A stretch of DNA of 64,000 nt from an uncultured Methanoregulaceae archaeon (GTDB lineage: Archaea > Halobacteriota > Methanomicrobia > Methanomicrobiales > Methanospirillaceae). Under the pieces are notes generated by a model. That model saw only the letters and a list, made by a program, of their open reading frames with translations, ran no database searches and was not told where the DNA came from. Position 1 is the stretch's first letter; each line of letters opens with the position of its first letter. Shown here piece after piece: positions 9,243 through 22,522 of this stretch. The stretch is taken from NCBI GenBank assembly GCA_963717525.1, contig OY970343.1, positions 1,824,001-1,888,000 of the forward strand, in the 5' to 3' direction. The translations under genes were made by a program, and so were the position numbers.

Positions 9243-10898
9243 TTAATAGTCGCCCATGCCGGGCATTCCACCCATGCCACCCATGCCGGGGGGCATGCCA
9301 CCGGCACCAGGTGCCGGGCCGGGTGACTTCGAGGAAGCGATCACATCATCAATGCGGAGGATCATAATCGCAGCTTCTGCAGCCGATGAGATTGCCTGGG
9401 TCTTGACACGGAGCGGCTCCACGACGCCGGCTGCCTTCATATCGACGGCTTTTCCTTCGAACACGTTGAGACCGTAGTTCTTCTTGCCCTTCTCATGGGT
9501 TGCGCGGATCTCGACCAGCATGTCAATGGGATCGAGACCGGCGTTCTCTGCAAGGGTCCGCGGGATGATCTCGAGTGCTACAGCAAAGGCCTCGATGGCG
9601 AGCTGTTCCTTGCCACCGACCGTTGCCGCGTACTCGCGGAGCCGGAGCGAGAGCTCGGTCTCGGGTGCGCCGCCACCGGCGACAACCTTCTTGTCCTCGA
9701 CAACGACACCGACAACACGGAGTGCGTCATGGATGGCGCGCTCGAGCTCGTCGACGACGTGCTCAGTGCCACCCTTGACGATGATGGAGACCGCCTTCGG
9801 GTTCTTGCACTGCTCGACAAAGGTCATCTCCTCTCCGGAAACCTTGCGCTCCTCGACAAGGCCGGCATGGCCGAGTTCTTCCTTGCTGATCGCGTCGATG
9901 CTGGAGACGAGGCTGCCACCGGTTGCCCGGGCAAGCTTCTCCATGTCGCTCTTCTTGACACGGCGGACGGCGAATATACCGGCCTTTGCAAGGTAGTGCT
10001 GTGCGATATCGTCGATGCCCTTCTGGCAGAACACTACGTTCGCGCCGCTCGCGACAATCTTTTCGACGATATTCTTGACCATGCGCTCCTCTTCATCGAG
10101 GAATGCCTGTAACTGCTCGGGGTGGGTGATGTTGATCTCAGCGTCAACCTCGGTCTTCTTGAACTCGACCGCTGCGTTGAGGAGAAGGATCTTTGCGTTG
10201 GTGACCTTCTTTGGCATGGCCGGGTGCACGCGCTCCTTGTCAACGAGAACTCCTTCAACAATCTCGGAGTCCTCGATGCTGCCGCCGGTCTTCTTTTCGA
10301 CCTTGATGTTATCGATGTCGACGGTCCCGTCAGCGTCGGTAACCATGGTGACAGCCCTGACAACGAGGTCGCAGAGCTTGTCCTTGCTCGCCTCAGCGCC
10401 CTTGCCGGTCATCGCGGTGCCGGCGATGTTCTTCAAGAGCGCCTTGTCGGTTGATTTGACATCGAACGCGATGTCCTTGAGGAGCGCCTGCGCCTTCTCT
10501 GCTGCCATTCGGTAGCCGTGGGCGATAACCGTCGGGTGGACGTCCTGTTCGAGAAGTGACTCGGCCTTCTTTAAAAGTTCCCCGCCAATGACGACTGCGG
10601 TTGTGGTCCCGTCGCCGACCTCATCGTCCTGGGTCTTTGCGACTTCGACCATCATCTTTGCGGCCGGGTGCTCGATGTCCATTTCCTTTAAGATGGTGAC
10701 ACCATCGTTTGTGATCACGACATCGCCAATGGTATCGACAAGCATCTTGTCCATACCCTTGGGGCCGAGCGTGGTTCTGACTGCACTGGCAACAGCCATT
10801 GCAGCGGTGATGTTCATACCCTGGGCATCACGGCCGCGGGTGCGGTTGGTGCCTTCCTTAAGAATGAGAATTGGTTGTCCTCCAAGTTGTTGCGACAT
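9243..10898 (-). CDS. thsA: Thermosome (group II chaperonin) subunit
   Basis: [19 protein letters not shown]-repeat tail. Confidence 0.97.
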
Positions 10899-10940: not shown

Positions 10941-10953
10941 TATATAAATATTC
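10941..10953 (-). promoter_or_regulatory. TATA box (TTTATATA) and BRE region of the thermosome gene
   Basis: Minus strand reads GAATATTTATATA ~45 nt upstream of the ATG at 10898. Confidence 0.6.
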
Positions 10954-11005
10954 TCTTAAAAGGTTCTGATAGGATGAAGGGACTTTTACCAAAAACCAAA
11001 CCTCC

Positions 11006-11025
11006 GATAGATCGCGGGACTTTTT
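11006..11025. repeat. Left subterminal 20-bp inverted repeat of the transposon
   Basis: GATAGATCGCGGGACTTTTT is the perfect reverse complement of 14861-14880; both lie 44 bp inside their element end. Confidence 0.92.
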
Positions 11026-11078
11026 GGAAGAAAGATAAAAGACCCGGAATAAACAAGAGAGCATATAGTGAAAAACCT

Positions 11079-11990
11079 ATGACTGTTTGTATTGCAGCAA
11101 TATGTGATTCGATATCTCCATCGCCAAAAATTGTATTTGCATCAGATCGATTAGTTTCTGCCGGTGTAAGTTTTGAAAGCGGGGTTTCAAAAAGTCAGTA
11201 TTTAACCCCCAATGCATGGATTATGTCATCTTCGAACGATGCATTGGCAAGTGATGGTATCATATTAAAAATTCAAAAAATACTTGCGGACTCACCAGAC
11301 GCAGGTAAACAAATCCCAATAGAACAAATCGCAAATATGATCTCCCAAGAATGTAAAAACAAAATACGTTTAGAGAGGGAAAACCAAGTATTTTCGCAAT
11401 TTGGAATAAACGAAAGTGATTTTGCCGAAAAATCAATTAAAATATCCACTTTGGTTGTTGCGGATATTTTAAATCGATTGCGCGAATTTAAATATCAATT
11501 TGAGGTTGAGTTTTTAGTTATCGGGTTTGATTTTATACCAGCAAAGAATCTATACATGCCTCATATTTATTCGATAAACGAACTTGGAGATATTCTCCCC
11601 ACGGATCATTTAGGATTTGCTACAAGCGGGAGTGGGAAGTATTTGGCGTTTCCAGAAATTACTAAGTATGCATATCAACCGAACACTCCACTAAGCGAAG
11701 CGGTTTTAAGAGTGTACTGGTCTAAAAAAATTGCCGAACGAGTTGGCGGGGTCGGGAAAGAGACAGATTTGTTAATACTTCATGCAATAAAGGATGGAGT
11801 TAAATTATGGATTGCCCCGCCAGAAACCAAAAAAATGTTGGATGATAAACTCGAAGCCGTTCGGAAAGATGAAATAAAAATCTCTCTTGAGGTTATAACA
11901 GAATTGAATAATACTGTTTTCAATCCGGTAAATCAGCAGAATATACAACAAGAGGTAAAAGAGACAAAGACGATTTCGGAAAAATCTTAA
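11079..11990 (+). CDS. Proteasome beta/Ntn-hydrolase-like protein (transposon passenger)
   Basis: M-T-VCIAA start, FASDR, downstream Lys, FATSGSG, GGVG; 303 aa from ATG 11079. Confidence 0.72.
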   Translation: MTVCIAAICDSISPSPKIVFASDRLVSAGVSFESGVSKSQYLTPNAWIMSSSNDALASDGIILKIQKILADSPDAGKQIPIEQIANMISQECKNKIRLERENQVFSQFGINESDFAEKSIKISTLVVADILNRLREFKYQFEVEFLVIGFDFIPAKNLYMPHIYSINELGDILPTDHLGFATSGSGKYLAFPEITKYAYQPNTPLSEAVLRVYWSKKIAERVGGVGKETDLLILHAIKDGVKLWIAPPETKKMLDDKLEAVRKDEIKISLEVITELNNTVFNPVNQQNIQQEVKETKTISEKS

Positions 11991-11993
11991 TTA

Positions 11994-12170
11994 TTATTCT
12001 TTTTTCATCTCAATTACTAATCTATCACCCTCTATTTTCCATTGGAACTTATCTCCGGGTTTAAGATTCATTTGATCCATAATAAACGCCGGTACTGTCG
12101 TCCTTAATGAACGCCTTTTCGATGTAGCAAGATTAAGAATTGATTCATCGGTTCTTGGATTTTTCGACAT
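11994..12170 (-). CDS. AbrB/MazE/SpoVT-family DNA-binding protein (58 aa, not in ORF track)
   Basis: Translated by hand: MSKNPRTDESILNLATSKRRSLRTTVPAFIMDQMNLKPGDKFQWKIEGDRLVIEMKKE; T-V-P...L-x-x-G-D swapped-hairpin signature. Confidence 0.82.
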   Translation of the reverse strand: MSKNPRTDESILNLATSKRRSLRTTVPAFIMDQMNLKPGDKFQWKIEGDRLVIEMKKE

Positions 12171-12283
12171 AGTTTACCCTTATGTTCACCCACATATTTA
12201 TTCTTTTGTATGCCAATTTGTTTACCCACAAATTATAAATACTTATAAGGAGATTATTATGTAGGTAAACAAGTAGGTGAACA
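12171..12283. promoter_or_regulatory. Divergent promoter with five 12-bp WGTTYACCYWYA repeats
   Basis: Copies at 12171, 12183 and 12219 (forward) and 12260 and 12272 (inverted) around TTATAAA at 12233-12239. Confidence 0.7.
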
Positions 12284-13473
12284 TGATGCAACAACTAACT
12301 AACCCAAGAGAATTAAGAGGCCTTGCGATTCTCTCGCAGCCGAACACGATCATCCAGACTGGCAAGAACGAGTGGGATGTCCGATCACAGAGCAAGGATG
12401 CATACTATCAAGTTACACGGAAGTTCCAGGATCGCCACGCCCAAATGCGCGGTCAGGCAATGTGGACATGCTCATGCCCCGATTTCCAGACGAGAAACAT
12501 GCCCTGTAAACACATTTTTTCTGTCCAATTCTCGTTAAAACTTGGCGGAGATGTGGAGAAAGAAAGCGCGGCACAACACATCGAAACGGCAGAGCCAAAG
12601 ATCCTTTGCCCCGCTTGCAAGAGTGAGAGTGTTGTAAAACGCGGCATCCGTAAAACACAGTTTGGAGAGGTTCAGAGATTCGGATGCACTGACTGCGGCC
12701 ATAGATTTGTTGTCGATAAGGGATTCTGCCGGATGAAGTTTAACCCAAAGATCGTCACGCAGACGCTTGATCTTTACTTCAAGGGGCTTTCACAGAGAAA
12801 GATCGCGGACCACTTAAAGCAGTTTGAAAGTGTTAGCGTAGCCCAACCCACGATCCTGAGCTGGATCAAGAAATACCTGAAACTTCTTGCAAAGTATTCC
12901 GAGAAATACAAAGCAGAAGTCGGCAAGATTTGGCACTCTGATGAAACGACGGTGTTCATCAAGAAAGAGGGGGAGAAAAAGTATTACCAATGGATCTGGA
13001 ATGTCATGGATGCAAAGACACGCTATCTCCTTGCCTGTCAGATTACCGAGACGCGATTTGTTAAGGATGCGCGCATCCCGCTAAAGAAGGCAAAAAGTGT
13101 CACCAATGTTAGACCAGACGCAATTGTTACCGACGGACTACAAGCATACAAGGAAGCCGTTAAAACCGAGTTCTTTGACCACGAGGCATTCATCCAGAAC
13201 CCCCATATTCGCCTGAAAGACTTTGAGACCAAACCTAACAACAATATCCTTGAACGGTTAAACGGAACATTCCGTGAGAGAACAAAAGTTGTACGGAGTT
13301 TTGACAGTGGACTTGGTGCAGCAGAATTTGCAGCGGGAATGCAGACGTATTATAATTATATCAGACCTCATCAAGGCATTGGTGGGATGGTGCCGGCTCA
13401 GATGGCAAACATCCCGATCAATCTGATGGGGAATAGATGGGAAACGATGATTGAGTTGGCAATTAGAACCTGA
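12283..13473 (+). CDS. IS6-family DDE transposase with N-terminal SWIM and Zn-ribbon domains
   Basis: CSC...CKH (SWIM); CPAC...CTDC; HTH GLSQRKIA; WHSDET, IVTDG, NNILERLN catalytic motifs. Confidence 0.92.
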   Translation: MMQQLTNPRELRGLAILSQPNTIIQTGKNEWDVRSQSKDAYYQVTRKFQDRHAQMRGQAMWTCSCPDFQTRNMPCKHIFSVQFSLKLGGDVEKESAAQHIETAEPKILCPACKSESVVKRGIRKTQFGEVQRFGCTDCGHRFVVDKGFCRMKFNPKIVTQTLDLYFKGLSQRKIADHLKQFESVSVAQPTILSWIKKYLKLLAKYSEKYKAEVGKIWHSDETTVFIKKEGEKKYYQWIWNVMDAKTRYLLACQITETRFVKDARIPLKKAKSVTNVRPDAIVTDGLQAYKEAVKTEFFDHEAFIQNPHIRLKDFETKPNNNILERLNGTFRERTKVVRSFDSGLGAAEFAAGMQTYYNYIRPHQGIGGMVPAQMANIPINLMGNRWETMIELAIRT

Positions 13474-13646
13474 TCCTCAGATACAATACTATTTTAAATA
13501 GATTTGTGACCCTATTATAAACTCCAAAAATTGTTATTTACCAAAAAGTTAATGAAGTCACAGGGGCACACTCAGTACATTATTGTTAAGCCAAATGGCT
13601 ATTGCACAAATTACCTAGACTGTGACAGGGGGCGTTATAAAAAATT

Positions 13647-13793
13647 ATGATGAGGAAAGGGGAACCATTAGGGATGCTAAATTGGAAAACTGATAAAATC
13701 CATCTTATGACCTCAACAGATAAAAAAACATTCGACGAATTTCGGAAGAAAATTGAAGGGGAACCCCACATTCCAGAATTTTTAATAAAATAA
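13647..13793 (+). CDS. Possible small protein (48 aa) inside the transposon
   Basis: MMRKGEPLGMLNWKTDKIHLMTSTDKKTFDEFRKKIEGEPHIPEFLIK*; stop abuts the convergent gene; no recognisable motif. Confidence 0.3.
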   Translation: MMRKGEPLGMLNWKTDKIHLMTSTDKKTFDEFRKKIEGEPHIPEFLIK

Positions 13794-13794
13794 A

Positions 13795-14748
13795 CTAAAA
13801 CACTCCTTTTAACAAAAGAATTTGTAATATTGCAACGAGTGAAATGGTATAACTTATAATAAATAGTTGCCTATGCGGAATTTCATATTCGTCTCTTAAT
13901 AATGAGTAATAAAAATAAGCAAACCCCATTAAAACTATTAAAAATTCAACCCCAAAAGTACAATCAAAAGCAAGAGTATCTTGACCTAAAAAAGATAACA
14001 ATCCATTATGCAAAATAAAAAGTGAAAATATGAGAAATATCAGGGGGATTAAGGAAATTGCTGCAATTGCGGGAGTAACTTCTGCGTAATAAGTAAACCA
14101 CATTTTGGGGTCTTTCAAAGAATCCCAAGTTTGGGTTAAATAATCAAAATCTTTAGAATCAATCAAAAAATTATATGTTAATCTTCCTTCATTTCCTTTT
14201 ACAAATGGTTTCCCGCAATCGATTTGCTTAACAATTTCTTTATTGTCGATTAAGTACGAACCATACCCCATTTCGTATAATTTCCTTTGTTCTGGAAAAT
14301 AGAACGGGGTCTCCAACGCATTGTCCCAACACAATTTCCATCCTTTGGGGAAAGTGAGATAAAATTCCGGTTGAAGTTTACCCCCAATTTCTATAATTGA
14401 AGTTTTTTTAGGAATAAAAAAATCAGATAACTTGTCGATAGGATCTCCATTCTCGATAGCCGGATCAATCAAAGTGTACTCAACGCTTATTTTGACATGC
14501 TTGAACGAGGTTGTATTGGGAGCATCTGGGAAATCATCTAATGGATCTAAATTTAACAAAATATCAAAATAGTTCCCGTTTGTGTATTCTAAAAACCCAA
14601 TCTCTTTAGGCGTTCCGTTCCTCGTAATGACTTTTAATCCAATAAAATTTAAATTTTTTAATCCTGCGAGCATTGTAGGGTCATTTGCGTAAATATCCAT
14701 TACCTGTCGAATTTTTCTCAGCTGCGGTGGGGAAATATACCTCTTCAA
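13795..14748 (-). CDS. Hypothetical protein with ~3 C-terminal TM helices (transposon passenger)
   Basis: 317-aa ORF in AT-rich DNA; GGTGG RBS before TTG; hydrophobic C-terminus. Confidence 0.75.
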   Translation of the reverse strand: MKRYISPPQLRKIRQVMDIYANDPTMLAGLKNLNFIGLKVITRNGTPKEIGFLEYTNGNYFDILLNLDPLDDFPDAPNTTSFKHVKISVEYTLIDPAIENGDPIDKLSDFFIPKKTSIIEIGGKLQPEFYLTFPKGWKLCWDNALETPFYFPEQRKLYEMGYGSYLIDNKEIVKQIDCGKPFVKGNEGRLTYNFLIDSKDFDYLTQTWDSLKDPKMWFTYYAEVTPAIAAISLIPLIFLIFSLFILHNGLLSFLGQDTLAFDCTFGVEFLIVLMGFAYFYYSLLRDEYEIPHRQLFIISYTISLVAILQILLLKGVF

Positions 14749-14860
14749 TATGCCACCAAGTTTGTTGTATCTCTATAGACACAATAACTTAGACGATAAT
14801 GTTTATCATAAGAGTTTCGTTTTTATTATAATCCCAATATGTGCAAATCCCAGTCTCTCT

Positions 14861-14880
14861 AAAAAGTCCCGCGATCTATC
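14861..14880. repeat. Right subterminal 20-bp inverted repeat of the transposon
   Basis: AAAAAGTCCCGCGATCTATC; partner of 11006-11025. Confidence 0.92.
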
Positions 14881-14999
14881 ACCTCTTTCCAAAAGTCCCG
14901 AAGTCCCTTAAACCTATCAGAACCTCTTAAAAGGTTCTGTTGCGTTGTCGGGAGATCCGTGCTTTTGGATCTCGCTGGTGCGTTGCGGGAGATGAGAGA

Positions 15000-15320
15000 T
15001 CAAGAGATCGAGATACCAACCGCTCCCATCAGCAATCCCAATCCCAGAACAACCAATGCAACAAGTAACAACCCCAGCAACGGGTTTATCTGCATAAGGT
15101 ACTCCATACCCCACACCATAGTAAGAAGCGGTATGATGAAGAGCAAAAGTCCCGCTATGACGAGTTTTATGATTAAGGGCTTTGTGCTCTCTTTTTTTTC
15201 AGGCGATATAACCGGGGGCTTTTCTTTGACAGGTTTGGGGGCCGGGTTTAAGAGGGCTCCGCATCTTCCGCAAAATTTGTTTGGATCCGGGTTACTATAT
15301 CCACATTTTGGACAGAGCAT
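15000..15320 (-). CDS. Zinc-ribbon membrane protein
   Basis: CPKCG...FCGRCG followed by two TM segments. Confidence 0.75.
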   Translation of the reverse strand: MLCPKCGYSNPDPNKFCGRCGALLNPAPKPVKEKPPVISPEKKESTKPLIIKLVIAGLLLFIIPLLTMVWGMEYLMQINPLLGLLLVALVVLGLGLLMGAVGISIS

Positions 15321-15448
15321 AAATGATTTCTCTCTCGATCCTTTAGGTAATATAGATTTTGATTCAGGGTTCTGACAGGTTCGCGGTTGGTAAAGAGCGT
15401 AGCATATTTCACGCTTTGCTTACCAAATCCGGAACAAACCTCTAAAAA

Positions 15449-16373
15449 TCAGTCGCCCAGCATGTCGAGGAGTTCAAAGCCGTCCGCGATATGGTGGAAG
15501 CGATCCTCACCGATCACAAGCGTCCGCCCGATCTTTTTTTCGTGATGGTAATCAGTGATGATGCACATCGCATGCTTCTTTGCGATCTTCGAGAGATTGC
15601 TGATAAGGGCGGCACGCTTGACCACCTTCTGCGCCGGGCCGTAACCAGTGAGGATCGTGTGCTTGTCAAACGTGAGAAGGGCTTGGAACGGTGCGCCCCG
15701 GAGTGTCTGGAGCTGTATCCCGAGCTGCTCAAAAAAATCGATGGGGATGCCCGGACCCTGCCTTTTCTTTGGTTCCTCCTGCCCGGATTCTGCAGGTTTG
15801 CGACGGACAATATCGATGGACTCAACCACTCCCGTATTGAAGTACTCCTCGATACGGATCGCGACATCGAGCGTCAGTACCCATGCCGCTTTCGTATTTG
15901 CTGATCGTGCGCCGGGAGACCCCGAGCACCTGCCCCATGTCACCAAGCGACATGCTCCGCCGTTCGCGGAGCTCCCGGAGGGCGTTGCCATTGATGTTCA
16001 CGTACAGTCCGCCGGGAGAGGCGTACACGAGCGGTGGGATCTTCTCCACAAAGTAATCGTACAGCGTTGCGATGCTGATCGCGTAGATGCCATACCGGAC
16101 ATAGACCGCCCCCCGCTCGAGCTCGGCCTCGCGGGCACGTTCGCCCACGATGAGGGGCACACCACCCAGGTGCTGGGAGATCACGTCAAGATCGAACGCC
16201 GCTTCCTCGCTCACCGAATCGATGTGCGTAACGACTTTGATAACAAGCAGCGTCCCGTTATTGCGTGCGATGAGGTCGAAACTCCTCGGGCGGAGGGTAA
16301 ACTTCTCGGATACCTCAAATCCCGCCGATATCATCACGCTGGTGACCAGCTGGAGCTGGCGATCCTGGGACAT
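15449..16373 (-). CDS. Archaeal Cro/C1-HTH transcriptional regulator (COG1395-like), apparent +1 frameshift at ~15876
   Basis: RPRSFDLIAR, PPLVYASPGGLYV and HTH VSRRTISKYESG continue as TLDVAIRIEEYF in the next frame; span is 3n+1. Confidence 0.82.
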
Positions 16374-18087: not shown

Positions 18088-18852
18088 TTATGCTACCAGT
18101 TCGGCAACATATTTTTCCCGCTTACTCCACATAAGCGGGAAAACACCATAATTTTCCAGAGCAGTAGGTACTTCTTCCGGGATCCGGCGCTCCTTATCAT
18201 TAAGAATTGCGTATGCTTTCGAATCCGGAGCACGGACATCTTTGGTATCAATCCATGAAAATGATAACATTTCAGCCTGTGCCCGGTTGGGATTGTTGAT
18301 GGTCTGGAGAATTCTTTCAGGCTCCTGCCGGGATTTCGGGATGACAAAATCAAAAAGATGATCATAACCGGATTTACCGGTGAATTTTATTTTCGGAGTG
18401 TACCTTATTTCCGTCTCATCGAGCCAGGCGACAACATCTTCAAAGAATAAACTGGCGACAACAGGTTCTGAGAGATAGAACAGGTCGTTGACTGCGAGCA
18501 TAGCCTGTAAGAGATTGTGCTTTTTCTGCGGGAACGACTTGTCGGTTGTTTTGATGGTCAGGACCCCCCGGTCGTTCTGGACGCCAAAACCTTTGAGTGT
18601 CGTGGACAAAAGCGCCAGACGTTTATCGGTGTCGATCCTGCATCCTGACATCTTCAGATCTTCTAAAATATACCCGTCATCCGTAAGGACATAGCCGCCA
18701 TTACTTTTTTTGACGTAGATCTGCAGGAAATCGTTATGCCGGTCAAGGAACGGCGTTGTTATCTCCACCCATTCGTCAACCTGGCGCAGGCTGATCGATT
18801 CATTGAGCCAGTGGAGATAATCCTGCAACAGCCGCTCGACGTCAGTGATCAT
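18088..18852 (-). CDS. DUF1828/DUF1829-like protein (possible PD-(D/E)XK fold)
   Basis: ITTPFLDRHND, LTDDG and GKSG..H.FDF motifs. Confidence 0.8.
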   Translation of the reverse strand: MITDVERLLQDYLHWLNESISLRQVDEWVEITTPFLDRHNDFLQIYVKKSNGGYVLTDDGYILEDLKMSGCRIDTDKRLALLSTTLKGFGVQNDRGVLTIKTTDKSFPQKKHNLLQAMLAVNDLFYLSEPVVASLFFEDVVAWLDETEIRYTPKIKFTGKSGYDHLFDFVIPKSRQEPERILQTINNPNRAQAEMLSFSWIDTKDVRAPDSKAYAILNDKERRIPEEVPTALENYGVFPLMWSKREKYVAELVA

Positions 18853-19298
18853 TATTCAATTCCTGCAATAATGTTTGGCTCTTTTACAATATTACAATAC
18901 GTCATGAAGTCTTTCAATGTCTGCCACAAATCCGTAAGATCTGAAAACGAATCGGATGCTACAGGATATGCCCATTTGTCTGCATATCCTTCCCGATAGA
19001 GATGAATGTGTGGCCCGCTGATGAATTCATCATCAGGATTTTTGTGGGGTTTGCCGGTAAGATCCAGCCTGACCAGAATTATCATCTGGTGCGCCCGATT
19101 CTGATAGGTTATTTTATTCAGTTCCAGCCTGCTTCTCCATAAATCCAGCACAAAATTATTTCGTTTGTCTTCTGACAGCAACGGGATATTTATAGATGTG
19201 CCGCGACCGGGGAAGTGCCATGTGTCGTCATTGAGCCGGTATTTCGGCATCTGGATCAACGCGTCGGCTTCTTCCTGAGAAATTTCAATGTCAACCAT
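18852..19298 (-). CDS. DUF6978-like protein
   Basis: LVRLD...PHKNPD....GPHIHLYREGY...WAYP; stop overlaps the start of the DUF1828 gene. Confidence 0.75.
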   Translation of the reverse strand: MVDIEISQEEADALIQMPKYRLNDDTWHFPGRGTSINIPLLSEDKRNNFVLDLWRSRLELNKITYQNRAHQMIILVRLDLTGKPHKNPDDEFISGPHIHLYREGYADKWAYPVASDSFSDLTDLWQTLKDFMTYCNIVKEPNIIAGIE

Positions 19299-19420
19299 GG
19301 CCCTGCCCGGTATTGTTACTTTATCTGATATGAATTATATTTGTTCCTTTCATCGTGAAGGGGGCAATGAGCAATCGCATTTTAGTAAATATAATAAAGT
19401 CGCCATGGGGGGTGAATGTG

Positions 19421-22400
19421 TTATTTCGTCGTTTCCTCCACGACGGCAATCTCATCCACTGTAAGCCCGTAGATCCCGTACACAAGCGAGTCGATCTGCT
19501 TGTCGGTGGAGTCGATCTCCTGCTGGATCAGCCGCTTTTCCTGATCGGTCTTTGCATGGCTCAGGTGTTTGTGCAGATCCAGCATACCGGTCACGAGCGC
19601 AACCATCCGGTCGTGCCGGGCTTTATCATCCGGGTTGTCGAAGTCGATAGTGTAGATGGGGAAATTTTTCAGCACAACGTACGCCGGCATGAAAAAGCCT
19701 GCCTGAAGTTTGGGCAAATTCGTTTCAAATAAGAAGTACGTCAATTTGCTGTTTAAAACACCTAATAAATATTTGTCAGCCTTTGGAATTATGAAACATT
19801 TGTTATTAGCATAGAATTTTGACTCATCCAGCGTAAATTCGGGTTTTTGACAAATCTCAGGATAGATTATTTTTGGTTTTTCAAATTCTTCATAATAATC
19901 AATTGTATCCTGAATTTCATACCATTCGTACAATCCCGGTTTTCGCCCTTTCCAATCCTCCCCTTTCCAATCTTTTGGTCGAGGAGTTAATTTTATTTTA
20001 AATTGCTTAAGATAATTCACGATTGCTGGATATTTTTTTATTTCAACTCCATGTTTGGTGAAAATTAAAAATTTCCCGTCATTTGTTAAGGGTCTGTACC
20101 GTTTAATATCTCTTCCAACTAAGTATGGTTTAATTAAATCTGCAGAGTTTGGATCTTCACTAATCAATTTCTGTTTAATTTTTTCATCAATAACAAATGC
20201 CTCGTTACAACCAGTGACAATTCCCCGGTAAACTTCTCCCATCACATACTCTTCGAGTGGCGTCCCCGCGCTCTTCAGTTTCTTCAGCAGACTCTCCGTC
20301 CGTTTGTCCCCGAGTGTCCAGCCGCCGTCCGTGAGTGTTGCCTGCTCAATCGGGTGGCGGTGCGCCTGCACGTATCCCGCAAGATCCGGGAAGTCAAGCG
20401 TTTCCACCTTGGATATGCAGAATTCTTTTGCCGGCGTGTTGTTCGAGACCCGGATGATGCACGGGTATGTTGTCGCAGCCTTGAAGACCGGCAGGTCGCC
20501 GAAGTCCACGATCTCCTCAATCTGTTTTGACAGGAGGAACTTCCGGAGCGGCTTCCCGTAATTCGCCCGCATCCACTTGTTCGCCACGATGTACGAGAAA
20601 ATGCCACCGGGGCGCAGGAGCGAGATGCCTTTCTCGATGAAATACGCGTACAGGTCAGCGGTTCCCTGGTAGACCGCATAGCGCGACTGGTAGTACTCTT
20701 TCTGATCTTTGATCGATTCCTGCCTGACGTAGGGGGGGTTGCCGATCACTGCATCGAAACCGCCTGCCTTCATCACGAGCGGAAATTCTGCCTGCCAGTC
20801 AAACGCATTGACCCGTTTGCGCTCCTCCATGTTGAACGGGTGCGCCTGCCTGAGATCGAAGTAATCCGGTGCAACGAGCGAGTTGCCGCACCTGATGTTA
20901 TGGTGCAGGGAGGGCAGCGCCCGCTCCGCAAAGAGCTTCAGTTGCTTCGAGACATTCTCCTCGCTCTCTTCCTCAAGTACTTTCAGGAGAAGCGAGAGTT
21001 TCGTCACTTCGACTGCCTGTGGATCGATATCCACGCCGTAGATATTGTGCAGGAGGATGCGCTTGCGTTCCGCTGTGGTCAGCCGCCAGTCGCTCCGCAT
21101 CTTCGAGGGGTCGCTTGTCCCGACCTTATAGATCGGCAATTCGTATGCGCCCTCTTTTTTTGCTTTGCCGGAGGCGACCGGATCCGGCAGGAGCGCCTGA
21201 ACTTCCGGAGCGGCAGCCGTCCGGCCCTTGAGCACCGGCACGAGATGCTCGATATACCAGTCGCGGTGCCGGTCGAGCAGGAACTGGTAGGCACCGAGCA
21301 GGAACGAACCGGATCCGCACGCGGGATCCACGATGGTGAGCTTTGCCACTTCCCGGGGGGTCTTCCCTTTCACCAGTTCGCCCACGGTCTTTTTGACAAT
21401 ATAGTCCACGATATACGCAGGCGTGTAGTAGACACCGCCGGCCTTGCGCACCGCCGGCTTGTCCTCCACATCGGCCCGGTGGGATGCAGAGAGTCTGATC
21501 ACCTTCCCGAGGAACTGCTCGTATACCTGCCCGAGGATCTCGGCTGGGATCACCGAGAACTCGTACGGGCTCGGATAATAGAGCCGGTTGATGATCGCCT
21601 TTAAGACCGAATCGTCGATGACAAGGGATGGCGTGAGCGTATCGGGAATCTCGTCACGCCCGGCCTCCTCTGCAAAATGGAAAAGCCCGGAGTTATACTT
21701 GTCATCAGCGAGCCGGAACAGGTCACAGACCCGGGCATACACCGCTTCAGTATGGGACAGGGCATGCAGGGTCTCGTAATGCTCGATCCCCCGGTCCTCG
21801 CAGATACGCAAAAAAATGATCCGGTCTATAATCAGCTGGACGGCAGTGTTCACCTCTTCCTGCGAAAGCCCGATATTGCGCAATGCGATGTTACGGGCAA
21901 GCAGCAGCCTCCAGTTCTCGATATCCTCCAGGAATTTTTCATCGACGCCGGCAGTCCCGTGTTTCTCACCATTCGTTGCAACGTATTTGTCAAACGAACC
22001 TTTCTGGATACCTTCCGGGGAAAAAACCGCAGCGATCCGATCCCATCGTTTCTCGTATTCCGTGTAGGGGAAATAGGCAATCCGTGCTGTTGCAGCCGTA
22101 TCCTCTTTTCGGAGGGGAACATTGCAGTCATAGACTGCGAACTCCTCGAAGTTTGTCAGGATGGAAAGTTTCAACCCGGCATTCCATGCGTAGCGACGCA
22201 GCTGGAGCGCCGCATCCAGATCATCTTTAAGGGCAACGGCAGGCTTTTTTGCCTCGCAGATGAACTTCCGGGCCCCGCCAACCCGGAACGAGTAATCGAT
22301 ATGTTTCGTCTGCCCACGGATGCGGATGGGATCTTCATGGGCCACCTCTTTGTAGGCTTCCGACCAGCTCTTGTTATTATCTACGTCCCAGCCAAGAGCA

Positions 22401-22522
22401 CGGAAGAAAGGATCGAGGAATTCACGCCGCAATTCAGTCTCGTTCTTCTGTCCCTTGTGATAGACCGGACGGTTGAACTCATACCGCTGGACAAGATCAA
22501 GAACCGCCTGTGGTGCCGGCAT
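19421..22522 (-). CDS. Type IIG (Eco57I/TaqI-C-like) restriction-modification enzyme
   Basis: N-terminal nuclease ID...EAKK; MTase motifs GVYYTP, DPACGSG, GNPPY; C-terminal specificity domain. Confidence 0.92.
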   Translation of the reverse strand: MPAPQAVLDLVQRYEFNRPVYHKGQKNETELRREFLDPFFRALGWDVDNNKSWSEAYKEVAHEDPIRIRGQTKHIDYSFRVGGARKFICEAKKPAVALKDDLDAALQLRRYAWNAGLKLSILTNFEEFAVYDCNVPLRKEDTAATARIAYFPYTEYEKRWDRIAAVFSPEGIQKGSFDKYVATNGEKHGTAGVDEKFLEDIENWRLLLARNIALRNIGLSQEEVNTAVQLIIDRIIFLRICEDRGIEHYETLHALSHTEAVYARVCDLFRLADDKYNSGLFHFAEEAGRDEIPDTLTPSLVIDDSVLKAIINRLYYPSPYEFSVIPAEILGQVYEQFLGKVIRLSASHRADVEDKPAVRKAGGVYYTPAYIVDYIVKKTVGELVKGKTPREVAKLTIVDPACGSGSFLLGAYQFLLDRHRDWYIEHLVPVLKGRTAAAPEVQALLPDPVASGKAKKEGAYELPIYKVGTSDPSKMRSDWRLTTAERKRILLHNIYGVDIDPQAVEVTKLSLLLKVLEEESEENVSKQLKLFAERALPSLHHNIRCGNSLVAPDYFDLRQAHPFNMEERKRVNAFDWQAEFPLVMKAGGFDAVIGNPPYVRQESIKDQKEYYQSRYAVYQGTADLYAYFIEKGISLLRPGGIFSYIVANKWMRANYGKPLRKFLLSKQIEEIVDFGDLPVFKAATTYPCIIRVSNNTPAKEFCISKVETLDFPDLAGYVQAHRHPIEQATLTDGGWTLGDKRTESLLKKLKSAGTPLEEYVMGEVYRGIVTGCNEAFVIDEKIKQKLISEDPNSADLIKPYLVGRDIKRYRPLTNDGKFLIFTKHGVEIKKYPAIVNYLKQFKIKLTPRPKDWKGEDWKGRKPGLYEWYEIQDTIDYYEEFEKPKIIYPEICQKPEFTLDESKFYANNKCFIIPKADKYLLGVLNSKLTYFLFETNLPKLQAGFFMPAYVVLKNFPIYTIDFDNPDDKARHDRMVALVTGMLDLHKHLSHAKTDQEKRLIQQEIDSTDKQIDSLVYGIYGLTVDEIAVVEETTK

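Follow-up and report, generated by a model that had tools for sequence, protein, structure and literature searches.

Tn7 inserts at attTn7, a site read by TnsD, at a fixed distance from a conserved host sequence; the letters of its 5-bp target-site duplication (TSD) vary, each of its ends holds several transposase sites, and copies stack in tandem and carry defence cargo. The TnGBS, ISLre2 and ISKra4 elements insert 15 to 17 bp upstream of sigma-A promoters, and contact with the initiation complex has been proposed (PMC3942029); for archaea, the accessible text of that paper suggests only that the AT-rich TSD of the insertion sequence (IS) ISH6 might favour promoter or intergenic regions. The intasome of Ty3 contacts TBP, and the TBP/TFIIIB contact is structurally proven (10.1101/2021.07.27.453949). 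Here we analyzed a stretch of 64,000 nucleotides (the window) from an uncultured Methanoregulaceae archaeon (assembly GCA_963717525.1, contig OY970343.1, positions 1,824,001 to 1,888,000) and, within it, a 3,963-bp element with four genes between its ends, hereafter the 4-kb element (Table 1). Sequence comparisons point to promoter-targeting transposition by this cargo-carrying archaeal DNA transposon, a habit known from the streptococcal TnGBS-type elements and from yeast Ty3. In the literature covered, which excluded most subscription journals and the supplements (element lists) of PMC3942029 and PMC6563490, we found neither an archaeal TATA-anchored insertion nor the same family; PMC6563490 lists thaumarchaeal IS families, and its accessible text does not mention promoters.

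An earlier note on this DNA had described a recently inserted unit transposon with a single transposase and bipartite ends. Its anatomical claims were borne out: the 8-bp TSD, the imperfect 24-bp terminal inverted repeats (TIRs) starting GGTTCTG, a second, perfect 20-bp inverted repeat inside each end, and one SWIM/Zn-ribbon/DDE transposase with AT-rich passenger genes on both sides were all recovered. The inner repeats, at end positions 45-64 of both ends, are identical, and the right end has three copies of the core GGGACTT (end positions 18, 26 and 55) and the left end two (18 and 55), as claimed. The element has a GC content of 38% versus 54.5% for the genome, and the two cargo genes have 36% and 33% versus 59% for the neighbouring thermosome gene. 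Since the same end motif, 8-bp TSD and inner repeat recur in dozens of relatives, the element is not a chance pattern. The empty site that the note had proposed to look for was found: contigs from two studies (X17 and X18) join position 10952 to 14924, skipping exactly 3,971 bp, the length of the element together with one TSD copy. These contigs are ∼97% identical to the window in the flanks, the shorter side in X18 being 253 letters long, so the insertion is later than the split from such strains. The sequence predicted for the empty site was right only in part, since the flank GGTTCTGTTGCG from 14933 belongs to an older member of the family, whose left end it forms. A TSD length of 8 bp was imposed in the search for relatives and is confirmed for the 4-kb element by the empty allele. 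Contigs of two further runs, X1 (possibly the source) and X10 (another study), carry the element without substitutions and lack one base each at 14719 and at 15875; one-base assembly errors in the window are likely at both positions. The first leaves the start of cargo 2 uncertain, and the second likely accounts for the frameshift in the neighbouring PRK04140 regulator gene. No back-joint or circle junction was found in the contigs of 8 runs. Altogether, we regard it as practically certain that the 4-kb element is a unit transposon.

To place the element in a family, we collected relatives from a GTDB scan (411) and from metagenomes (at least 549) and kept 77 and 80 loci, respectively. Elements were delimited by inverted repeats with an exact 8-bp duplication, no motif being supplied, and this motif-free search yielded GGTTCTG-type ends repeatedly. 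An end filter (GG or GA start) was passed by 74 of the 157 loci, the others being mostly too short or lacking an end pair; after removal of one duplicate and addition of two elements of the genome itself, 75 complete elements of 2.2 to 11 kb remained. Their hosts include Methanoregulaceae, Methanoperedens, Methanocellaceae, Nitrososphaerota and Bathyarchaeia, and 4 of the 77 records bear bacterial titles, perhaps through misbinning. Over 150 ends, pre-filtered for a GG or GA start, G1, G2 and G7 are conserved at 0.99, 0.98 and 0.97. In close relatives the inner repeat is found at +45, and distant members have it at +35 or +44, positions separated by about one helical turn. In 46 of the 75 elements it matches in at least 12 of 18 positions at both ends, a count made without a shuffle control. 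Copies with alternative cargo, which the earlier note had expected, exist within the same genome (G000): a second autonomous member (C1:2070743-2077067, TSD CCCTTAGT) has a transposase 76-77% identical and carries an HNH nuclease and a DNA methylase, and 73 other elements were found beyond it. A non-autonomous member (G000:C1:520460-526280) lies upstream of a ClpB-like gene, with a TATA box at base 14 and a TSD matching in 7 of 8 positions; its cargo resembles, by eye, Ku/ligase repair genes. Ends in the genome were searched for with a weight matrix (91 matches versus 2 in shuffles at score 16); a loose regular expression (313 matches versus 113-142 in shuffles) was dropped as noisy.

This collection also bears on the possibility that the 4-kb element is an IS26-like composite, or a cassette array of short end-bearing units, in which the transposase would be merely one passenger. 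Such a reading could draw on 43 short (72-96 bp) end-to-end units without TSD in the genome, which often flank single genes, and on internal end-like sites in 12 of the 75 elements. However, internal ends are absent from the 4-kb element, short units are absent from all 75 elements, every complete element has its own exact TSD, and the empty allele lacks the 4-kb element as one exact block. We thus find a composite barely credible. As for how the unit inserted, clean TSDs on unlike neighbours fit simple insertion, and resolved cointegrates likewise leave TSDs (PMC7986276); we lean slightly towards simple insertion over IS26-type cointegration.

We then examined where family members insert. Reading outward from the element end, the typical geometry is the 8-bp TSD, five more bases and a TATA box from base 14. 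With a pattern set after seeing examples, a TATA-like sequence starts at base 14 in 45 of 74 elements and at base 13 or 15 in none; the end on the TATA side is the left one in 23 cases and the right one in 22. We also used two consensus patterns, YTTAWA and NWTAWA, on 39 site clusters collapsed from the 46 elements with both outer flanks resolved. At base 14, YTTAWA was counted in 12 of the 39 clusters and NWTAWA in 22; at the other offsets the mean counts were 0.15 and 0.89 and the highest counts 1 and 2, respectively, offsets 12 and 16 having been left out of the background because of TATATA repeats. Counted on directly adjacent flanks, 42 of the 69 testable elements have NWTAWA at base 14, and these represent 25 distinct promoters. 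AA resembling the B recognition element (BRE) occupies bases 10-11 in 25 and 27 of the 39 target-side flanks, and the TSD sequence itself is not conserved across elements. In the genome itself, 3 of 117 end pairs tested are flanked by a TSD, and all 3 have a TATA box at base 14. A held-out set of 19 further regions gave 12 end pairs, 3 already seen and 9 new. All 7 new SWIM-type elements have NWTAWA at base 14 (5 of 7 by YTTAWA), three of the 7 promoters being alike, and the other 2, distant elements lacking SWIM, do not have NWTAWA at base 14.

Three points weigh against a general rule. NWTAWA is missing from base 14 in 27 of the 69 testable elements, the distant clade gives a weaker signal (12 of 27 clusters, versus 10 of 12), and a single genus and a single promoter contribute many of the sites. 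A pattern absent from ∼40% of testable elements, among natural, selected insertions in gene-dense genomes, could be expected if insertion were random and only copies lying harmlessly upstream of promoters survived selection. Yet survival alone would give a broad window rather than a single base with none on either side, and it would not place independent insertions at the same base of one promoter. Nor does a control group of other short IS6 elements in one genome (G235, 11 copies) show a peak, with 0 of 11 at base 14 and at most 1 at any offset by NWTAWA. We therefore consider selection on random insertions highly improbable and fixed-offset targeting upstream of TATA boxes very probably real.

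The thermosome promoter next to the 4-kb element illustrates this precision. Among 29 orthologous loci, the best-matching of 106 genomes with a match, 17 are empty, 11 are occupied by an element that begins at one and the same base (8 different 8-mers among them) and 1 is truncated. In all, 12 complete elements at the thermosome promoter have 12 different TSDs, each matching itself, which indicates that they inserted independently. Target choice and stacking at the same site are properties absent from the earlier note: 28 of the 75 elements abut another end via a shared TSD, and stacks of two or three elements occur at the thermosome promoter. In the window, the neighbour is the older 508-bp element, which is present without the 4-kb element in the X17 and X18 contigs and as loose ends in X16, and which carries a 106-aa zinc-ribbon membrane-protein gene (15000-15320, minus strand). 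The site is fully empty in one orthologous locus (L055), where the 8-mer TCTAAAAA is present once. These strains and the third 8-mer of the window, which differs by one base from the other two, give the order of events: the older element came first, one of its TSD copies mutated, and the 4-kb element inserted second, beside the promoter. Since the promoter-side TSD copy would recreate the target each time, every newcomer would insert beside the promoter and displace the older elements outward.

We next considered which promoters are used. Of 38 downstream proteins, 23 were scanned, those left out being mostly repeat thermosomes and doubtful frames; 15 of the 23 were thermosomes (4), Hsp20 (3), ArsR/PF0610-like regulators (4), CDC48 (3) and peptidase M48 (1). 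Other targets with the same offset include the EF-1 beta region, DUF2098 and membrane proteins. A CTAAC-N5-GTTAG-like box follows the TATA box in 7 of 25 target promoters, versus 9 of 1,006 AA+TATA-like sites in the genome of the 4-kb element, an enrichment suggesting that target use follows promoter type and not only TATA sequence. By these counts, heat-shock promoters are favoured. CTAAC-N5-GTTAG is the HSR1 site, and Phr keeps RNA polymerase off the TBP/TFB-promoter complex, according to the accessible text of PMC9133787. Because Phr-type repression would leave TBP and TFB bound without polymerase, repressed heat-shock promoters are a plausible standing target, which would likely explain the preference. 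The same protein list and the same box could instead mean that the transposase is tethered by a heat-shock regulator (HSR1/Phr-like ArsR) or another stress-promoter factor, the TATA offset following from a fixed operator spacing. However, 18 of the 25 target promoters lack the box, the thermosome promoter of the window among them; the non-stress targets keep the same offset; and the box and the insertion are on opposite sides of TATA, the box being downstream. A regulator tether is thus very unlikely.

We favour, as probable if not strongly so, a tether through general initiation factors, in which the transposase docks on TBP or TBP-TFB already bound at the promoter; such docking is the likely reason for the fixed distance upstream of TATA. 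The transposase, which carries a helix-turn-helix (HTH), would bind both repeats of each end, outer and inner, and make an 8-bp staggered cut at -13 to -6. Since the gene would keep an undamaged BRE and TATA on its side of the duplication, its transcription would continue. One point speaks against this tether: a TSD reaching to -6 overlaps the upstream edge of the BRE and may clash with TFB binding. A complex predicted for residues 1-98 (SWIM) together with host TBP and the TFB core scored 0.02, with a mark of 0.32, and counts neither way. Four TBP genes and two TFB genes are present in the genome (G000:C1 440-441, 502-504, 975, 1293 and 2121 kb), and one TBP-TFB pair adjoins a family end at 504490.

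Alternatively, the transposase itself might read AA-N2-TATA, or a bendable shape, via its SWIM domain or Zn ribbon and cut at a fixed distance with no host protein involved. Direct readout gives the same single-base offset, accounts for the conserved AA and TATA letters at targets and avoids the steric overlap with TFB at the BRE; it would also suit a SWIM-sharing IS4/IS5-type transposase with a similar offset, described below. Nevertheless, the genome holds ∼1,006 AA+TATA-like sites, yet few promoters, mostly heat-shock ones, are reused, and the degenerate boxes GATAAATA, TTTATCCT and TTTATTAG are also used at exactly base 14. We consider direct readout rather unlikely. Choosing between it and docking on TBP or TBP-TFB could be reduced to three purified proteins, the transposase, TBP and TFB.

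A second transposon family points to the part that may aim. Its representative in this genome (L003:1668-4708, or G000:C1:287167-290207) is 3 kb long, with a 9-bp TSD and GGCTTTGCAC ends with repeated inner sites. Its transposase (C1:287430-288638) joins a SWIM domain to an IS4/IS5-type DDE core (DDE_Tnp_1) and shares only its N-terminal 97 residues with the 395-aa transposase (35%). The transposase gene adjoins the same AbrB-fold gene, and a search at E≤1e-40 detected the family in 9 of the 301 genomes of the order. Among 8 SWIM-IS4/IS5-type sites inspected by eye, about 7 have a T-rich box at or next to base 16, the boxes being weaker, and one site sits in the same thermosome stack. A similar offset in an otherwise unrelated SWIM-bearing transposase points to SWIM as the aiming part. 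Short IS6 elements lacking SWIM give a divided answer: in GC-rich genomes, 17 of them show AA at 15-16 and a T-run at ∼18-23, a loose T-run pattern giving 2, 5, 7, 1 and 2 at bases 17-21, and the 11 copies in G235 show no peak. The GC-rich control came from 83 loci that yielded only 20 distinct exact-TSD elements, with none from two genomes (G174 and G194). It indicates that SWIM is not needed for promoter bias and weakens the idea that SWIM is a requirement; at most, SWIM would set or sharpen the offset. The ordinary 697-bp IS6 elements of this control (L315-L349 and L258-L261; G209, G257, G230, G223 and G159) appear to have the TATA-like run at about base 18-19 outside one end, which suggests that promoter-upstream insertion is widespread among archaeal IS.

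These observations can be drawn into a broader proposal, which we advance tentatively and hold to be rather doubtful as a whole. Archaeal transposons would co-opt TBP/TFB as a landing mark, and a portable SWIM domain, travelling with an AbrB-fold repressor on unrelated DDE cores (IS6-like and IS4/IS5-like), would set the offset. Heat-shock promoters would thereby become self-renewing safe harbours in which defence and other cargo piles up chronologically, like an integrase-free cassette array. Docking upstream of TATA would let an element land without breaking genes and could account for the origin of small islands of defence genes, and for their stacking, at conserved genes in methanogens and ammonia oxidisers. 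If so, each insertion site would mark a real promoter, and the element would offer a single-gene, non-disruptive delivery vehicle for several kilobases in methanogens.

Set against described systems, the 4-kb family shares with Tn7 fixed-distance insertion, variable TSD letters, stacking, defence cargo and multiple sites per end, but no TnsC, TnsD or TniQ is among the four genes of the 4-kb element, and the family uses one transposase gene, many target promoters, an 8-bp TSD and either orientation. Like TnGBS, ISLre2 and ISKra4, it has a DDE transposase and a fixed distance upstream of a core promoter element, and both groups range from IS to cargo carriers; as far as the accessible text of PMC3942029 goes, however, those transposases are Mutator-type (p-MULT 3 and 4) and act at sigma-A -35 boxes in mostly one orientation, whereas the 4-kb family is IS6-related and uses archaeal TATA/BRE promoters in either orientation. 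With Ty3 it has in common a DDE/integrase-fold enzyme, base precision near a TBP-containing factor (presumed here) and harmless insertion (likewise presumed). Ty3 differs in being a long terminal repeat retroelement at RNA polymerase III genes, whereas here a DNA transposon inserts upstream of TATA through a putative tether.

The earlier note had assigned the element to the IS6 family. In favour are the GG-starting ends, the first seven bases of the IS6 consensus including G7, the 8-bp TSD, the DDE_Tnp_IS240 match and an HTH before the DDE core; the zinc-finger extension is a further likeness to long clostridial IS6. Against the label, the NCBIfam IS6 model is the transposase's best match, yet at 112.5 it falls below its cut-off of 125. 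IS6 transposases have ∼213-254 aa and the elements measure ∼0.7-0.9 kb, up to 1.76 kb in long clades (PMC7986276), whereas the 4-kb element encodes 395 aa with an added SWIM domain and its relatives span 2.2-11 kb. The IS6/IS26 criteria include a 14-bp TIR consensus with G10 (PMC6807381), in contrast to 24-bp bipartite ends with an inner repeat and an A at position 10, both in the 4-kb element and in the family consensus. The best annotated IS6 matches in plasmids, of the long clostridial ISCpe7 type, are 27-30% identical, and all 161 records are below 60%; identity thus stays short of the ∼40% criterion, and Harmer and Hall propose removing the ISCpe7-type group from IS6/IS26 (PMC6807381). 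The divergent AbrB-fold gene and the fixed-offset promoter targeting are further differences, and, unlike in IS26, stacks here are different elements sharing a TSD and not translocatable units. On sequence grounds, then, the 4-kb element is IS6-related and lies outside strict IS6/IS26 membership. It has the organization of a transporter IS (tIS), with one transposase and passengers in one end pair moving as a unit. In the accessible text of PMC7986276, only one passenger-carrying IS6, ISDsp3, is listed; here cargo is the rule, with an open reading frame (ORF) of at least 100 aa in 71 of the 75 elements and on both sides in 50.

The transposase exceeds the Pfam/NCBIfam cut-offs for SWIM (22.3 bits, cut-off 19.6), the IS1/IS1595-type Zn-binding domain (29.7, cut-off 28), DDE_Tnp_IS240 (50.4, cut-off 27) and rve_3. 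Transposase_mut (19.3, cut-off 21) and IS256 (46.2, cut-off 150) fall below theirs, the IS6-type models scoring far higher. SWIM spans residues ∼1-98, the Zn ribbon 105-142 and the HTH 154-205, and the catalytic residues D219, D283 and E323 are intact. In a structure model (pLDDT 87, superseding one from 10 sequences with pLDDT 55), the predicted core matches integrase cores and the ISCth4 transposase (Z 15-15.6, root mean square deviation ∼3); the fold search was dominated by the DDE core, and for SWIM it listed a single match, ZSWIM8 (Z 6.5). Searched against PDB sequences, a 107-sequence profile gave no match at E<0.01. Close relatives (69-84%) are mostly in records titled Methanoregula or Methanoregulaceae, which makes a methanogen of that group the likely host. 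The fourth gene, which the earlier note does not mention, encodes the AbrB/MazE-fold protein (PF04014, 25.2 bits, cut-off 24.7). A small divergent ORF is present in 48 of the 75 elements, and of 21 that were scanned, 15 match MazE or DUF2080 at E≤0.001. The AbrB-fold protein is a likely repressor of the transposase gene and would act on this gene, and on its own, at the repeats between the two.

Table 1. Features of the 4-kb element and its surroundings (window positions)
Feature	Position	Strand	Remarks
Thermosome (Cpn60/TCP-1) gene, intact, owner of the targeted promoter	9243..10898	-	orthologues scored as PF00118
TATA box TTTATATA of the thermosome gene	10941..10948	-	first base is base 14 outside the left end; conserved in 29 orthologous loci
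TSD copy, promoter side, TCTTAAAA	10954..10961	.	spans -13 to -6 relative to the TATA box
Left TIR, 24 bp, begins GGTTCTG	10962..10985	+	22/24 versus right end
Left inner repeat, end position 45; repeats the part of the TIR that the transposase likely binds	11006..11025	+	20/20; most close relatives have it there too
Cargo 1, 303 aa, predicted proteasome-subunit-like (N-terminal nucleophile hydrolase)	11079..11990	+	
AbrB/MazE-fold protein, 58 aa, divergent from the transposase, likely autorepressor	11994..12170	-	predicted from PF04014
Intergenic control region with direct and inverted TTTACCC/GGTAAA-type repeats, likely operator	12172..12284	.	predicted from repeat listing
Transposase, 395 aa	12286..13473	+	SWIM, Zn ribbon, HTH, RNase H/DDE core
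Cargo 2, ∼300 aa, hydrophobic segments C-terminal	13795..14748	-	start uncertain
Right inner repeat, end position 45	14861..14880	-	
Right TIR, 24 bp	14901..14924	-	
TSD copy 2, TCTTAAAA, common to the 4-kb element and the adjoining older element	14925..14932	.	
Older non-autonomous element, same family, stacked at the same site	14933..15440	+	left end 14933, internal end 15368, eroded right end
TSD copy 3, TCTAAAAA, one base different	15441..15448	.	matches the 8-mer of the fully empty site in L055

Cargo varies widely in the family: 246 cargo proteins fell into 161 clusters, 129 of them singletons. In PADLOC, 19 of 137 cargo proteins (135 cluster representatives and the two from the 4-kb element) had a match, 8 with restriction-modification as best match; neither cargo gene of the 4-kb element matched. 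Cargo 1 itself has no Pfam, NCBIfam or PADLOC family match; its Atlas score is 0.97 to clusters in which 28-40% of members carry PF00227. Homologues occur in 5 other elements (6 elements in all), and the one in L179 matches PF00227 over the cut-off. The protein begins Met-Thr, and it is possibly a defence or regulatory protease. For cargo 2 the best Atlas score, 0.83, is a lead only, and there is one homologue, in element L184.

The 43 short units have family ends, are mostly 79-80 or 91-93 bp long (0-2 in shuffles) and cluster at G000:C1 137-152, 793-798, 1104-1141, 1277-1307 and 1696-1719 kb, where the bracketed single gene is AT-rich. None of the 43 has a TSD of 4-12 bp, and nearest-neighbour identity has a median of 76%. 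A weak signal for TATA at base 14 was seen (6 of 43; other offsets up to 3). As boundaries of mobile cassettes, paired short units found no support, since matches between flanks (59 left and 61 right ends) were at chance apart from real elements and no short unit occurs in the 75 elements. A reading as integron attC was rejected, since the core orientation is opposite to that of the attC consensus.

A third type of cargo element (L046:7046-10522) has perfect 29-bp TIRs starting TGTGGTG, a 6-bp TSD, CCTATC, an integrase-like transposase and a small divergent gene; it sits in a palindromic region of G/C runs, not at a TATA box. Finally, the window contains a separate low-GC island at 18088-22522, downstream of a tiaS-like gene, with two hypothetical genes and a gene for a 1,033-aa protein that resembles, by eye, a type IIG restriction-modification enzyme.

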